IMG/VR virus record: IMGVR_UViG_3300020450_000029
Location: 1-55,989 of that record
Length of the DNA stretch: 55,989 nucleotides
Direction: 5' to 3' (one strand)
DNA from: a virus
Lineage: Duplodnaviria > Caudoviricetes
The position numbers and the translations under genes were made by a program. The notes beneath the pieces were generated by a model, which was given only the letters and a program-made list of their open reading frames with translations, was not told the DNA's origin and did no database searches. Positions 4,170 through 45,820 of the stretch are shown here, piece after piece; the first letter of the stretch is position 1; every line of letters begins with the position of its first letter.

Positions 4170-4239
4170 AAAGGTTGACATATCCGCAGTTGATGTTATC
4201 ATGTATATATAAGTTGTTAAAAATAGGAGTGAGAAACTA

Positions 4240-5259
4240 ATGCAGACAACAGAAAAACAAGTTCGTATTGCTAATGGTACGTATAGAAATATTAATGTAA
4301 AGGACGTTGTGTTTCCTTTAGTTAAAGATTACAAGCAAGGTAAAACAGGTAACTTCGTTACAGTTGATGGTAGTGCAGTGCCTGGATTCCCGGACCGATC
4401 CATTCGTGTAAAGGTAGTTGATAAAAGTGAGTTCGACTATATGGAAGACGGTGAGAATGTTGTGACTGGTGAAGCCGCCGAGCCAGAAACAGATGATCAG
4501 ATCATCGATAGGTTGCGGGAGCGATTTGAGATCCTAGAAGACATGACTTATGCTTCATGTGATGGGGTCGTTCGCGGTATGGTAGTTACTGGACCTCCAG
4601 GTGTTGGTAAATCGTTTGGAGTTGAGAAAGTACTCAAAGAAGCTGGCATTATGAAGAAGTTGAGCCAGGATAGCTTGCGAAGGTTTGGAGTTGAAAAAGG
4701 TGCGGCGACACCAATTGGACTTTACCAGTTGCTATATGATTACAGTGCTGATGGTAGTGTGCTAGTGTTAGATGACTGTGATAGTGTATTGTATGATGAA
4801 CTGAGTTTGAACTTGCTCAAGGCGGCACTAGATAGTAGCCCTAAGCGAACATTGAGCTGGAGGTCAGAAAGTAGAGCACTTGCTAATAATGGTGTTCCGG
4901 ATCAGTTCGAGTTTAAAGGTTCGATCATTTTTATTACCAACGTTAAGTTCGAAAGGACACGAGGTAAACTAAAAGATCACCTAGATGCGATAATGTCCAG
5001 ATGTCACTATTTGGATCTTACATTGGATACAATGCGAGACAAGTTTTTGAGATGTAAACAAATTGTAGCTGACGGTATGTTGAATACTTACAAGTTCAGT
5101 GAACAAGAACAGAAAGAACTTATGGATTACATCTACACTAACAAAAATAAACTTAGGGAGATGAGTTTGAGAATGGTGCTCAAAATTGCCGACCTTAAGA
5201 AAATGAATGCTAACAAGTGGAAGAGTTATGCAGAGTCCACTTGTATGAAAAGGCTTTAA
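4240..5259 (+). CDS. P-loop ATPase (AAA-like)
   Basis: Walker A GPPGVGKS, Walker B VLVLDDCD, IIFITN; upstream TTGACA promoter. Confidence 0.85.
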   Translation: MQTTEKQVRIANGTYRNINVKDVVFPLVKDYKQGKTGNFVTVDGSAVPGFPDRSIRVKVVDKSEFDYMEDGENVVTGEAAEPETDDQIIDRLRERFEILEDMTYASCDGVVRGMVVTGPPGVGKSFGVEKVLKEAGIMKKLSQDSLRRFGVEKGAATPIGLYQLLYDYSADGSVLVLDDCDSVLYDELSLNLLKAALDSSPKRTLSWRSESRALANNGVPDQFEFKGSIIFITNVKFERTRGKLKDHLDAIMSRCHYLDLTLDTMRDKFLRCKQIVADGMLNTYKFSEQEQKELMDYIYTNKNKLREMSLRMVLKIADLKKMNANKWKSYAESTCMKRL

Positions 5260-5264
5260 AGAAT

Positions 5265-5392
5265 TCGATAACTGACGACTTACAATATTAAGTTATCGAT
5301 ACTAACTGGTGTACTCCTCTGTCTGCGTCACTCTCACTCACACCAGTTAGGACTTGGAGGGCTAGTAAGAAATCTTACTAGTCCTCTTATTT
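5265..5392 (+). ncRNA. Three-hairpin 3'-UTR element or candidate sRNA ending in a terminator
   Basis: 9-bp stem 5265-5299, 11-bp stem 5302-5350 with pyrimidine-rich loop, terminator 5357-5392. Confidence 0.5.
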
Positions 5393-5411
5393 TATAAGTA
5401 GTACGAAGGGA

Positions 5412-5645
5412 ATGAAATTGACTCAGCCAAATACAACCTTTAAATTATCAATCAGAGATGTAGAAATTATAGAACACGCCTTGAGAGCAAAAGCAGGACG
5501 GAGAGGACTAGCCATAGCCCAAGGTGAAACATCAGCAGAACTTAGAAAAGAAATGCATGAAATACAAGAAGTATTAGGTAGAATATACGAGCAGAAAAAC
5601 TTTTATGCAAAGTTTCCTGATGGAAAAACTTATGTGAGTGGATAA
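5412..5645 (+). CDS. Hypothetical protein
   Basis: 77-aa ORF. Confidence 0.75.
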   Translation: MKLTQPNTTFKLSIRDVEIIEHALRAKAGRRGLAIAQGETSAELRKEMHEIQEVLGRIYEQKNFYAKFPDGKTYVSG

Positions 5646-5813
5646 ATGAGCGGATATACAGAATACGGTTATAGAGGACTAGAAGAGTTAAAGCAAAAAG
5701 AAAGTGAAATAGAAAAACTTCGTGCTGAAATCTCAGAACTAAAGATGCAATTACAAGCTATGGAAAATAGATGTAATGACTTACAAGCAAAAGCTAGTGT
5801 ACCTCGCTATTGA
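5646..5813 (+). CDS. Small coiled-coil protein (55 aa, not in ORF track)
   Basis: MSGYTEYGYRGLEELKQKE...; starts directly after upstream stop. Confidence 0.65.
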   Translation: MSGYTEYGYRGLEELKQKESEIEKLRAEISELKMQLQAMENRCNDLQAKASVPRY

Positions 5814-5838
5814 CAGATTATAAAAACGAGCATATAAT
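5810..5838 (+). promoter_or_regulatory. Sigma70 promoter predicted to give a leaderless uvsW mRNA
   Basis: TTGACA-17-TATAAT-6 nt-ATG. Confidence 0.75.
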
Positions 5839-5844
5839 CAACAT

Positions 5845-7299
5845 ATGAATACAAAACTAATCCTCAAAGATGAGGTCAATTGCAAGTTTGAAGGACTTGG
5901 GTTGTCTACTCGTCGCACTTTGGAAAAGAAATTAAAATTCTTTTTACCTTATGCATATCATGTACCGGCATACAAACTTGGTAGATGGGATGGGTGTGTA
6001 GGATATTTTACTATGGGTGGAGCAACATTTATAAACTGCTTGCCTATAATTTTGCCTATACTAGATGAGGAAAACTATAATATTGAAATAGAGGATAATA
6101 GACAGCCACATGATTTCCGTTTTGATTTGGTAACCGAAGATATGTTTAGTGATAAGGTTTGGCCTGAAAAACATCCTGCGTCAGGTAAACCAATTGTATT
6201 ACGAGATTATCAAGTGGAAGTAATTAACAAGTTTTTGCAAACGCCACAATGTTTGCAGGAGATTGCAACAGGTGCTGGTAAAACATTAATTACGGCGGCA
6301 CTGAGTTATAAGTGTGAACCTTATGGTCGAACGATCGTCATTGTCCCTAACAAGGATCTAGTTACGCAGACAGAAGCGGACTATATTAATTTGGGTCTTG
6401 ACGTAGGAGTCTATTTCGGTGACAGAAAAGAAGCGGGACGAACTCACACCATATGTACTTGGCAGAGTTTAAACATAATGGAAAAAAGATTCAGAGACGG
6501 ACTAAGCGATAGCGGGTTACACGATTTTGCAGAGGGTGTTGTTTGTGTTATGGTAGACGAAGTACACCAAGCTAAAGCAGACGTATTAAAGAAACTGCTA
6601 ACTGGTGCATTTAGTAATATCCCAATACGTTGGGGACTAACAGGAACAATACCCAAAGCAGAACATGAACGACTAAGTCTTGAAATATCATTGGGCGAAG
6701 TAACCAACAGTTTAAGTGCTCATGAACTTCAAGACTTGGGCGTACTAGCCAACTGTGAAGTAAATGTACTACAGTTGCAAGACACAGTAAGTTATGGTGA
6801 CTATCAGAGTGAACTTACATACCTAACTACAAATAAAGATAGATTAGATTACATGGCAGAGCTAATTGCAAAATTAGGCGAAGCAGGTAACACTCTAGTG
6901 CTAGTAGATAGAATTAAAGCAGGACAAGGATTACTTGAAAGACTAGGAGACGAAACAGTTTTTATTAGTGGTTCAATGAAAAGCAAAGATAGAAAAGATG
7001 AATATGACGAAGTTAGTGAAGCCAATAATAAAATTATTGTAGCAACATATGGTGTTGCGGCAGTTGGTATTAATATTCCACGTATTTTTAATCTTGTACT
7101 CGTAGAGCCAGGTAAAAGTTTTGTTAGGGTTATACAAAGTATTGGTAGAGGCATACGTAAAGCACAAGACAAGGATCATGTGCAGATATGGGATATAACA
7201 TCAAGTGCAAAATTTAGTAAGAGACATTTGACTGAGCGAAAGAAATTTTATCGAGAAGCCAAGTATCCCTTTCACATAGAGAAAGTTGAATACCGATGA
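5845..7299 (+). CDS. uvsW: SF2 DNA helicase, UvsW-like
   Basis: LRDYQ, ATGAGKT, DEVH, GLTGT, GINIP, QSIGRGIR motifs. Confidence 0.92.
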   Translation: MNTKLILKDEVNCKFEGLGLSTRRTLEKKLKFFLPYAYHVPAYKLGRWDGCVGYFTMGGATFINCLPIILPILDEENYNIEIEDNRQPHDFRFDLVTEDMFSDKVWPEKHPASGKPIVLRDYQVEVINKFLQTPQCLQEIATGAGKTLITAALSYKCEPYGRTIVIVPNKDLVTQTEADYINLGLDVGVYFGDRKEAGRTHTICTWQSLNIMEKRFRDGLSDSGLHDFAEGVVCVMVDEVHQAKADVLKKLLTGAFSNIPIRWGLTGTIPKAEHERLSLEISLGEVTNSLSAHELQDLGVLANCEVNVLQLQDTVSYGDYQSELTYLTTNKDRLDYMAELIAKLGEAGNTLVLVDRIKAGQGLLERLGDETVFISGSMKSKDRKDEYDEVSEANNKIIVATYGVAAVGINIPRIFNLVLVEPGKSFVRVIQSIGRGIRKAQDKDHVQIWDITSSAKFSKRHLTERKKFYREAKYPFHIEKVEYR

Positions 7300-33607: not shown

Positions 33608-35467
33608 TTGTTTTTAGGACTATTAGTTTTTATAACAGCCCTTTGTATTAGTGCAGTAGCAATATATTATAGTATAGCAGGATTGGTAGCTATTTTTGCC
33701 GCCGCGGCTATACCTATAATGATTATGGGCGGAGCATTAGAAGTTGGTAAACTTGTAACCGCAGTATGGTTACACAAACACTGGCGTCGAGCTAAATGGT
33801 GGCTTAGGTACTATCTAGCACTCGCAGTAGTTGTGCTAATGTTTATTACCAGTATGGGTATATTTGGTTTTCTTAGTAAAGCACACATAGAGCAGACCAG
33901 TGCTAGTATTGAAAGTGTAGAACAAGTAGCACGTATAGAAACTGAGCTAGCAAGACAACAAGCAATAATAGATCGAGCTGAAATAAAAATACGTGAAGCT
34001 GAAAACAGTACTGGTAATCGTAATGATGATATCAATGCACAAATAGAAAAAGAACAACAACGTATTGATAGTGCATACGAACGTATCAAACCTGCAATAG
34101 AAGAACAACAAAAAATTATATCAGATGCTAGAGATAGTGATGCAGATAGAACCAAACCATATGAAGACCAATTAACCAAAATTACAGATGAACTAGTACG
34201 GTTAGATAACAATGCTAAAGAATACGAAGCAACTATTGCAGATTTAGATGTTGATAACAGTGCTATAGATCCAATACAAGCACAAATTGCAACTATAAAA
34301 AATACTATAGCAAAAGTTGAAGGACAAATTGCTAGTGGTGAAAGCGAACAAATTAAACAAGCACAACTTACTATTGGTTCAAATGCAGACGGACAAGCAG
34401 GACCAAACACAAGGCGTAGTGCAAATACATGGATTGGATTACAAAAAGAACGTATTAGTGAATTGCAAGAACAAATCTCACAATTAAGAATAGAAGCAAA
34501 AACTACAGTAGACAATGAACGTACACGACTTAGTACTATAGTAAGTGATATACGTAATGTACAAATACCTGCATTGAAAGACAGAGAAGTGCAGATGCTT
34601 GCTAAAATAGATGAAGTTCGTGCAACTGAATCTCCAATAGTAACTACTGCTAGAGACGAAATTGCTAGGATAAGAGCAAGTGCAGATGAACAAGTTAATG
34701 CAAGTCAAACATTAATTCAACAGTTAAGGGAAAAAATTACAGTAGATAGTGGTGCAGATATTGATGCAATTATAGATGCACAAAGTCTACGTATTACAGA
34801 TGCTAACAAATTAATAGATGAACTAACAGAAGAAAAATATACAATTGAAGCAGAGTATAGAAAATTAGAAGCTGAAGTAGGTCCGATTAAATACATTGCT
34901 GAATTTATATATGAAGAAGCAGATAGAGATATACTAGAACAAGCAGTAAGGTGGGTTATCATTACAATCATATTTGTATTCGATCCACTAGCAGTTTTAC
35001 TGTTAATAGCAAGTCAATATACTTTTGAATGGAGAAGCCAAAATGACAACCAAATACGCAGAACAATTGTACAAAATGAACCCGATCCAGAGCCCCAGTC
35101 AACCACTGAGCCAGAAGAGCCAGTCTACGAAGATGTGGACCAAGAAATCATCGATAATGAATTTGCTGAAGAAAAAGTAGAAGATGAAGATGAACTAAAG
35201 TTCATGTTAGAAAAAGCTGACCCAGAAGTTTTGGAAGAAGTAGCAAAAGAACTTGAAATAGAAAAACCGGTTGACAAAGAACCATATGACCCTTATACTG
35301 ATAACAGAGCTGATGAAGAACTTACTAACGATGAATTGGCTCAGAGACAAAACAGAAAACTATATTCACCGGATGGTAGATTAGCGGCTATGCCAAAGAG
35401 AATAAAAAGCATTAAAATAAAAAGTATAGCTGAAAAAGCAGAGGATAATAAAAAAGAGGATGATTAG
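33608..35467 (+). CDS. Membrane-anchored long coiled-coil protein
   Basis: N-terminal TMs, heptads, GPIKYIAE, FVFDPLAV TM, acidic tail. Confidence 0.85.
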   Translation: MFLGLLVFITALCISAVAIYYSIAGLVAIFAAAAIPIMIMGGALEVGKLVTAVWLHKHWRRAKWWLRYYLALAVVVLMFITSMGIFGFLSKAHIEQTSASIESVEQVARIETELARQQAIIDRAEIKIREAENSTGNRNDDINAQIEKEQQRIDSAYERIKPAIEEQQKIISDARDSDADRTKPYEDQLTKITDELVRLDNNAKEYEATIADLDVDNSAIDPIQAQIATIKNTIAKVEGQIASGESEQIKQAQLTIGSNADGQAGPNTRRSANTWIGLQKERISELQEQISQLRIEAKTTVDNERTRLSTIVSDIRNVQIPALKDREVQMLAKIDEVRATESPIVTTARDEIARIRASADEQVNASQTLIQQLREKITVDSGADIDAIIDAQSLRITDANKLIDELTEEKYTIEAEYRKLEAEVGPIKYIAEFIYEEADRDILEQAVRWVIITIIFVFDPLAVLLLIASQYTFEWRSQNDNQIRRTIVQNEPDPEPQSTTEPEEPVYEDVDQEIIDNEFAEEKVEDEDELKFMLEKADPEVLEEVAKELEIEKPVDKEPYDPYTDNRADEELTNDELAQRQNRKLYSPDGRLAAMPKRIKSIKIKSIAEKAEDNKKEDD

Positions 35468-36697: not shown

Positions 36698-36704
36698 AAG
36701 TATT

Positions 36705-36910
36705 AATAAGGCGACGGTCTTGTTAGAGTAGTGCAAGGAAACGCACATTTACCAGAGTGTGTAACTTGGCTAGTTAGGGGTGGTACCCAGGCATGGTTGC
36801 AGAAATGCGTTGTGCCACATCGCTCTCCCGAGCGGAACTAGGCTACCTGGCTTTGAGAATGGTATCTCGGTCGACGGTTTGGAGGTATACCCGAATCCTC
36901 CCTACTCACA
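36705..36910 (+). ncRNA. About 200-nt structured RNA with tRNA-like 3' end (possibly manA-motif-like)
   Basis: Closing stem GAGTAG/CTACTC, GGAGG/CCTCC arm, CTAGTT/AACTAG, CGCTC/GAGCG and other stems; own promoter. Confidence 0.65.
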
Positions 36911-37071
36911 TATATCCTTAGTTGGAACTTGACAGTAATTGGATTACAGTCAGACAGATGCGATAAGAAATGGAATGCGTCTAGAGATATGAAAAACACA
37001 AACAAGAAAGGTTGGCACCGTAATATGCCCGCGAGAAGCCAAGGTTAGCTTCTCACATGATAAATAAAAGT

Positions 37072-45102: not shown

Positions 45103-45176
45103 ATGGGTGTAGTGTAATGGTAACACGTCAGTCTCCAAAACTGAAGACGGGGGTTCGATTCCTCCCACCTGTGCCA
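45103..45176 (+). tRNA. tRNA-Trp(CCA)
   Basis: Cloverleaf, loop CTCCAAA, GTTCGATTC, encoded CCA. Confidence 0.93.
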
Positions 45177-45381: not shown

Positions 45382-45536
45382 TAGTTGAATGTGCAAAATG
45401 TGAAACATCATATGATAATCAAACATATTATTCATGTCCAAAATGTCAGCAAGAATTTGATTTTGAATTTGGATTGCAAAATGCAAAAGAACAAAAACAA
45501 TACAGAGAACAAATAAAAGTTGACATTATCAAATAA
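45378..45536 (+). CDS. Small zinc-ribbon protein (52 aa, not in ORF track)
   Basis: GTGA overlap; CAKC...CPKC. Confidence 0.55.
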   Translation: MIVECAKCETSYDNQTYYSCPKCQQEFDFEFGLQNAKEQKQYREQIKVDIIK

Positions 45537-45549
45537 TACTGTTATAAAT

Positions 45550-45820
45550 ATTTCGTAAACGTTGAAGCAACGTGAACACATACTGGACCCGGGGGCGGTA
45601 CCCGGCGCCTCCACCAAAACACTTTTAGACGAGAGTCTTTTTATGGGGGCGAAATAGGATCGACAGGTGTACTAGTGAAGTGGAGTTTACCGGATGACTG
45701 CGTAATAGGTCATTTAAACTAAATGCAAACGATAACTTTGCACCTTCAGATTACGCCTTAGCGGCATAATGCTGTCGGGTTGGCAACTGACCTAGGAACA
45801 GAATAGTTGCACAAAAACCA
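45550..45820 (+). ncRNA. ssrA: Two-piece (circularly permuted) tmRNA, alphaproteobacterial type
   Basis: Acceptor piece ending CCTCCACCA at 45616 precedes GGGGGCGAAATAGGATCGAC at 45645; tag 45725-45769 ANDNFAPSDYALAA*; ends approximate. Confidence 0.93.

Follow-up and report, generated by a model that had tools for sequence, protein, structure and literature searches.

A conserved hairpin in the 3'UTR of a marine phage ATPase mRNA displays a loop complementary to the ribosome-binding site of the same mRNA

A hairpin in the 3'UTR of an AAA-type ATPase mRNA of a marine phage was found to carry a loop complementary to the ribosome-binding site of the same mRNA. Judging from conservation and covariation among relatives, this hairpin (hairpin 2) and the terminator behind it are a real, conserved structured RNA that had not been catalogued previously. 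Hairpin 2 with its terminator probably mediates self-repression of ATPase translation by 3'UTR-5'UTR pairing, either in cis or through a stable 3' fragment. An earlier note, made from the letters of this DNA, had described the loop as an anti-Shine-Dalgarno (anti-SD) display complementary to the ribosome-binding site of the upstream ATPase gene. This complementarity proved to be conserved in relatives, and the predicted pairing is wider than the note saw, with the start codon covered as well.

The window, that is, the whole stretch of DNA analyzed here, is an IMG/VR virus record of 55,989 bases, for which CheckV estimated a completeness of 15%. Its + strand carries nearly all long ORFs, and the replication genes in it code for a primase, a DnaB-like helicase, a UvsW-like helicase, a ribonucleotide reductase and a ligase. 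Rfam covariance models located a tmRNA, a manA RNA and three tRNAs (Table 1). A similarity search with the window at the DNA level returned zero matches among cultured phages, and the closest ATPase homologues of cultured phages, at most 42% identical, were found in jumbo and T4-like myoviruses. Therefore, the record is a piece of a large uncultured marine phage.

The predicted promoter of the ATPase gene, of which the -35 box and the A-rich upstream sequence are kept in relatives, and the terminator bound a monocistronic ATPase mRNA of ~1.19 kb. Downstream, at window positions 5810-5847, a perfect TTGACA-17-TATAAT promoter stops 6 nt short of the ATG of the UvsW-like helicase gene (5845), thus the helicase mRNA would have almost no leader or none at all. 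The gene past the terminator is arranged alike in distant relatives, with TTGACA, a -10 box and then ATGAAATGTAAA.

Table 1. Positions of the features in the window
Feature	Position	Strand	Description
Three tRNAs	1889-1962, 1969-2050, 45103-45173		Rfam covariance models
Sigma-70-type promoter of the ATPase gene	4175-4202	+	TTGACA, 16 nt, TATCAT, with TG; 11/12 matches
ATPase translation start region (target)	4226-4248	+	Extended SD GGAGUGAGA (4226-4234) and AUGCAGACA (4240-4248)
AAA-type ATPase gene	4240-5259	+	339 aa; AAA domain, phrog_1250, predicted; function unassigned in phrog
Hairpin 1	5265-5299	+	9-bp stem 5265-5273 / 5291-5299, 17-nt loop
Hairpin 2	5302-5350	+	Perfect 11-bp stem CTAACTGGTGT (5302-5312) / ACACCAGTTAG (5340-5350)
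Hairpin-2 loop	5313-5339	+	27 nt, ACTCCTCTGTCTGCGTCACTCTCACTC
Loop module A	5314-5321	+	Anti-SD-like CUCCUCUG; invariant in every loop-bearing lineage
Loop segment	5320-5328	+	UGUCUGCGU, complementary to AUGCAGACA (4240-4248)
Loop module B	5332-5339	+	UCUCACUC, complementary to GAGUGAGA (4227-4234)
Intrinsic terminator	5356-5397	+	14-pair stem 5356-5387, then T-rich tail TATTTTATAA
Motif right after the terminator T-tract	5393-5400	+	TATAAGTA; nearly invariant across lineages
manA RNA	36704-36911		Rfam covariance model, 75.6 bits
Permuted alpha-type tmRNA	45516-45813		Rfam covariance model, 134 bits

The 146-nt stretch downstream of the ATPase gene folded into three hairpins (-46.7 kcal/mol, z = -5.96), and none of 200 shuffled sequences equalled it. 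Hairpin 1, hairpin 2 with its 11-bp stem and 27-nt loop, and the terminator were located exactly where the earlier note had placed them. A stem-loop with a T-rich tract and a covarying stem identified the last of these as an intrinsic (Rho-independent) terminator, and the distance between hairpin 2 and the terminator was 5 nt in every lineage. Hairpin 1 was confined to the window's clade, with many different stem sequences. Its loop displays UCUCAC or ACUCAC (CTCAC, anti-GAGUG) in 12 of 22 distinct versions, which makes a second anti-SD-like display; the window's own hairpin-1 loop is without the anti-GAGUG motif, this copy having lost it. The motif TATAAGTA was considered as a promoter motif and rejected, since its copies in the window, 5 on the + strand and 4 on the - strand, follow no pattern.

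The ATPase protein was searched against viral contigs, which yielded 206 related stretches, and the best 80 were kept (66-97% identity). In nearly all of these best 80, a hairpin sharing the loop but differing in the stem came after the ATPase stop codon, and a terminator after that. A covariance model of hairpin 2 and the terminator, built on 53 distinct sequences, found the motif once in each of 80 of the 81 sources (59-131 bits); the only source without it, L022, has a sequence that stops before the motif position. Across the 53 distinct sequences 96.0% of pair cells were paired, against 34-53% when partners were slid. Changes on both sides were seen in 20 of 24 pairs, comprising 11/11 pairs of hairpin 2 and 9/13 pairs of the terminator, and in 500 shuffles no covariation measure reached its observed value. 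The model alignment was fitted to the structure and thus leans towards it; stem swaps are plain in the raw sequences.

Conservation of the loop in homologues, a check that the earlier note had named, was evident. A 22-mer of the loop, present as a single copy in the window with 0 expected, was identical in 69 of the best 80 loci, and a 26-mer had exact copies in 77 viral contigs, as well as in one contig assigned to a Gammaproteobacteria MAG. In divergent members (62-65% ATPase identity), modules CUCCUCUGUCU (A) and UCACUCUCACUC (B) remained exact and a few bases between them varied. The contig in the Gammaproteobacteria MAG, 37.7 kb long, carries the ATPase gene at 85% identity together with the whole motif (L151:2232-3400); it is probably phage DNA inside the bin, and is a weak hint of the host. 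In another contig (L049:2324-2443), the 5' stem arm matches a distant lineage but the 3' arm matches the window's clade, with the crossover inside the invariant loop, so that its stem is unable to pair; this mixed stem is either a recombination crossover or an assembly chimera.

With Rfam 15, the whole window gave 6 matches, none at 5265-5397, and the top match within 5150-5500 reached 18 bits against a cut-off of 70 bits (E = 0.41). No earlier account of the motif was found in Rfam or in the literature, the literature queries having been aimed at subjects other than the sequence itself. The loci of the cultured homologues of the ATPase, in Pseudomonas phage PA5oct, Agrobacterium phage Atu_ph07 and Vibrio phage D479 (35-42% identity), were considered as carriers; they lack the hairpin, and self-complementarity is absent from them too.

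The element lies between the ATPase stop codon (5259) and the terminator, inside the 3'UTR of the ATPase mRNA. In 33 of the best 80 loci, fewer than 18 nt separate the ATPase stop codon from the hairpin arm, too few to hold a promoter of its own. The element is therefore a 3'UTR RNA, as the earlier note had it. Of 17 metatranscriptome runs listed, 14 contained part of the sequence and none contained half of its words. Metatranscriptome contigs (4 runs, low fragmentary cover) gave one 250-nt piece over 5302-5552, and contigs of this kind cannot show RNA ends.

The predicted duplex between the loop and the ATPase start region consists of an 8-bp helix of module B with the SD and a 9-bp helix in which the central loop segment meets the start codon plus codons 2 and 3, with one G-U pair and a 5-by-3-nt internal loop. 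The order and direction of the two helices fit one interrupted duplex, and the partners are ~1.1 kb apart. GAGTGAGA has one copy on the + strand of the window, at 4227-4234, within the ATPase ribosome-binding site. Among the 99 start regions of the window, that of the ATPase paired best with the loop (-24.3 kcal/mol); the runner-up (-21.5) was a weak, gapped pairing, and 0 of 2000 shuffled loops equalled the pairing with the ATPase start. When the start of each gene was paired with its own 3' spacer, the ATPase was the only outlier among 31 genes (-30.4, against -13.8 +/- 3.8 for the other 30 spacers; z = -4.36). When the loop was slid along the whole + strand in search of other targets, the top matches were long gapped pairings, which were rejected. 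One of them includes a 15-bp run at 34128-34142, within the gene at 33608-35467, made of 13 Watson-Crick and 2 G-U pairs with the loop; an estimated ~0.25 runs of this kind would arise by chance.

The earlier note had seen that ACTCCT in the loop is complementary to AGGAGT, and had proposed that the element silences SD-led, mainly early, mRNAs and spares leaderless ones. The AGGAGT sequences were indeed present 10-15 nt upstream of the starts at 1352, 4240, 23458, 30844, 46766 and 50062. The + strand of the window, however, contains 16 copies of AGGAGT, and simple arithmetic gives ~14 for a random 6-mer; thus the SD content is ordinary, and matches to ACTCCT are what any SD gives. The 99 start regions paired with the loop no better than intragenic windows (-11.55 vs -10.60 kcal/mol, p = 0.06), which speaks against silencing of SD-led phage mRNAs as a class. 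At least one gene of the window, that of the helicase at 5845, does look leaderless, but the general silencing from which such genes would be spared is unsupported.

The complementarity was followed in relatives. For 45 of the 53 distinct loci, the top-ranked partner of the loop was the ATPase start region, and start codons set wrongly by the script account for part of the remainder. A helix of 8-10 bp between module B and the SD was retained in each of the 39 distinct combinations of start region and loop, and most retained the AUG helix too. GAGTGAGA had 78 copies in the best 80 loci, of which 75 fell in the ATPase start region, and it was the only 8-mer loop complement that clustered at a fixed place across these loci. 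Conserved targets besides the parent mRNA were found neither in the start regions of the window nor in the 80 phage loci. GGAGUGAGA stayed constant in the loop lineages that bear it while the remaining leader varied. At synonymous sites, ATGCAGACA of codons 2-3 (CAG ACA) was fixed in the listed sequences of the window's clade except L037, and codon 4 varied.

We also examined folds of the whole mRNA. In the minimum-energy fold of 4209-5396, 4227-4234 paired with 5332-5339 and 4240-4248 with 5320-5328. Pairing of the SD and AUG with the loop was present in the minimum-energy folds of 46 of 58 distinct full-length mRNAs and absent in 12. It remained in 2 of 40 controls with shuffled loops (two versions each of 20 mRNAs); the 20 mRNAs were picked from the positives, so this control addresses dependence on the loop sequence, not the background rate.

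A second search, seeded with a divergent member, brought the joint set to 84 distinct loci and added three groups: one with the usual loop, one consisting of L310 and L311, and one with only a terminator after the gene. GGAGTGAGA, allowing at most 1 mismatch, was found in 63 of the 84 loci, all of them loop-bearing, and in 0 of the 17 loop-less ones. The GGAGUGAGA-type SD was accompanied by a loop with exact module B in 62 distinct loci and by a loop with shortened module B in one (L065). Two loci without such an SD have a loop with module B (L153 and the L307 group), two have module A only (L310 and L311), and 17 have neither the SD motif nor the loop. On a quick tree the loop-less group made one branch plus the outlier L335, and L310/L311 made another branch; these cases are thus 2-3 independent events, not 19.

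In L153, the altered SD GAGGGUGAC still pairs over 9 bp with the loop GUCACUCUC. The loops of L310 and L311 keep module A, have a U-rich middle and carry GUCUCUCUAC in place of module B, and their GGAGUGAGA-type SD motif is gone along with module B. Module A pairs there with their SD, CAGAGG. The leaders of L310 and L311 preferred their own loops (-20.2 and -18.9, vs -11 to -15 with other loops), and the start region of the window paired poorly with the L310 and L311 loops (-13.9 and -14.5). Covariation of the loop with the ATPase ribosome-binding site in related phages was a check that the earlier note had named. The special SD occurs only with the loop; a cross-lineage coevolution test with 10 loop variants was negative overall, with no general lineage-specific matching. 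In L058, L059 and L065 the own loop even paired worse than the consensus loop. Because both the loop and the SD are nearly invariant, the case is mostly one of conserved complementarity, not of classic compensatory change.

In distant lineages, the AUG helix was down to ~5 bp with the loop unchanged. Module A is invariant and yet unused in the predicted duplex of the window's clade, suggesting that something else also constrains the loop. The leaders of L054, L058 and L059 open with GUAGACAGAG, which by eye is complementary to CUCUGUCUGC of the loop; also by eye, the order of GUAGACAGAG and CUCUGUCUGC in these distant lineages makes them unable to extend the SD helix.

The L307 group posed a further puzzle. 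Its own loop is of the common type and pairs poorly with its own leader (-17.1), while the leader (L307:361-383, also in L308, L309 and L312) is complementary at 22 of 23 positions to the loop of L310 (L310:1419-1441; -39.6 kcal/mol). The pattern of this leader matched 22 contigs, of which the related ones were the four of the L307 group and, through its loop, the L310 contig. Origin of the L307 leader by recombination was considered and rejected: the protein of the L307 group is L302-like in all four quarters, thus any exchange is limited to the leader. We read the odd cases as hints of a modular exchange of leaders and loops and of one or more additional constraints on the loop, and they are not fully explained.

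A degenerate pattern of the loop was also searched in viral contigs. Among the 23 new loci that lacked a confident model match and had their pattern matches inspected, 22 were chance and one, L165, was real but unique. On the contig of L165, shared with L208, which belongs to an unrelated small phage, a site on the + strand at 356-386 is a complement of the loop at 30 of 31 nt. It lies between a 71-aa ORF and a terminase-coupled, lysine-rich ORF of 16 aa and overlaps the SD of the latter. Such a site was absent in all 24 terminase relatives examined, therefore it is a one-off.

The mechanism we favor, self-repression, would operate as follows. Hairpin 2 would hold its pyrimidine-rich loop open in the 3'UTR of the early monocistronic ATPase mRNA, where GGAGUGAGA, the extended SD, could be bound by module B and the first three codons, from the AUG on, by the central loop segment. 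The pairing may take place within one molecule, end to end across ~1.1 kb, or between a fresh ATPase mRNA and a stable 3' fragment protected by the hairpin and terminator. With the ribosome-binding site covered, ATPase synthesis would be limited or shut off, and the mRNA might be exposed to decay. Self-repression would in this way curb translation of a gene under a strong early promoter. The sequences bear out the structure, its conservation, the complementarity and the joint occurrence of the two partners; that they pair in the cell, that the effect is repressive and that a nuclease may take part is what we infer here.

Other functions of the loop have to be weighed against self-repression. 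There is a modest chance that the element uses the anti-SD-like module A, or the loop as a whole, and that pairing with its own mRNA is secondary or a by-product of the element's origin. Self-pairing leaves the invariance of module A unexplained, and in distant lineages this module contains ACCUCCU, which we take to be the core of the 16S anti-SD sequence. That 26 nt stay nearly invariant when the ATPases share only 62-66% identity suggests constraint beyond a single co-evolving partner, the build of hairpin plus terminator would yield a stable fragment, and the two matches across genomes (the L310 loop with the L307 leader, and the L165 site) point the same way. On the other hand, its own start region is the sole outstanding target of the loop in the 56-kb window, with start regions as a class unenriched, the copies of GAGTGAGA in relatives are concentrated at the ATPase start (75/78), and the L165 site stands alone among its terminase relatives. 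The same two cross-genome matches, together with the crossover in the loop of one contig, raise the idea that the loops act between genomes, the clade's phages, and possibly unrelated ones with the same host, using them to silence a rival's genes in co-infection, which we consider quite improbable. If true, such action would be RNA-based competition between phages.

An invariant loop on a covarying stem has the classic look of a protein-recognition hairpin, and neither module A nor the TATAAGTA after the terminator has an RNA partner. It is nevertheless unlikely that the loop is a binding site for a phage or host RNA-binding protein favoring pyrimidine-rich single strands, with the hairpin serving mainly mRNA stability or termination and the complementarity being incidental. 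Protein binding would leave unexplained that the best complement of the loop is its own SD and start codon in the right order and spacing, that the unusual SD is restricted to loop carriers, and that an anti-SD motif recurs in hairpin-1 loops. We regard as very doubtful a termination switch, in which a pseudoknot of module A (CUCCUC) with the terminator 5' arm GGAGGG (5356-5361) would tune read-through to downstream genes according to loop occupancy. The constant spacing of hairpin and terminator and the ability, by eye and with G-U included, of the G-rich terminator base to pair with CUCCUC in all variants would suit it, but a G-rich run pairs with any C/U run and is thus uninformative, the pseudoknot appeared in no minimum-energy fold, and neither module B nor the link to the SD is explained. 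The start region and the loop can also be read as imperfect inverted repeats of 8 and 9 bp at the DNA level, that is, as two inverted sites for protein binding or recombination around the ATPase gene. This last reading is highly implausible: a covarying stem joined to a terminator speaks for RNA, the spacers between half-sites differ (5 nt vs 3 nt), and one conserved position is a G-U pair, which in DNA is a mismatch. Moreover, the promoter was upstream of the gene in every listed upstream region, and an inverted segment was not found among the loci fetched.

The element thus presents an antisense copy of an mRNA's own ribosome-binding site and start codon that can be read from comparative sequence alone and is preserved with hardly a change of letter in a broad clade of abundant marine phages. 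It adds a new RNA family for the annotation of marine viromes and lends itself to clean tests of whether pairing of the two ends of an mRNA can limit or time early gene expression, with parts small enough to be transferred into a reporter. The comparison of each gene's start with its own 3' spacer is a recipe for finding more such elements.

To the best of our knowledge, few cases of bacterial or phage gene regulation from the 3'UTR are known, and most were found singly by experiment. Small RNAs derived from 3'UTRs that share the terminator of the mRNA are a known class. The phage element resembles them in its position between stop codon and terminator, in its stable hairpin and terminator and in its single-stranded seed, and differs in that the only clear target of its loop is the parent mRNA and in that it is known from sequence. 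Retroregulation of int by sib of phage lambda also uses a phage regulatory RNA structure downstream of the controlled gene; it works by RNase III cutting and 3'-to-5' decay, without the pairing to a ribosome-binding site that is predicted for the ATPase element. In the hbs mRNA of Bacillus subtilis, an interaction of the 5'- and 3'-UTR reportedly affects ribonuclease access and stabilizes the mRNA. The likeness is that two ends of one bacterial mRNA pair; unlike in the stabilized hbs mRNA, the SD and AUG of the ATPase mRNA would be covered, so repression is expected.

Anti-SD-like sequences located hundreds of nt downstream in bacterial mRNAs repress by long-range pairing, and such sequences inside mRNAs are generally selected against, according to a preprint (PMC12697547). 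In both cases a far-downstream pyrimidine-rich sequence pairs, here by prediction, with the ribosome-binding site, and lowered expression was shown in that work. The phage copy differs in being strongly conserved and structurally displayed, which implies that it is used.

The closest parallel is the icaR mRNA of Staphylococcus aureus, in which a pyrimidine-rich motif of the 3'UTR binds the SD region at the other end of its own message (PMC3868564). In the phage mRNA as well, the element lies in the 3'UTR of the mRNA it would regulate, its pyrimidine-rich motif is complementary to that mRNA's own SD region beyond chance, and blocked initiation is predicted. Unlike in icaR, the phage antisense stretch is displayed in the loop of a covarying hairpin beside a terminator, its pairing would take in the start codon as well as the SD (9 and 8 bp, respectively), and it belongs to a phage gene and is kept across ATPases down to ~62% identity. 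RNase III cleavage and repression belong to icaR, the system compared. On these likenesses, the ATPase element is best filed as a putative phage case of an mRNA that regulates itself by pairing its 3'UTR to its ribosome-binding site.
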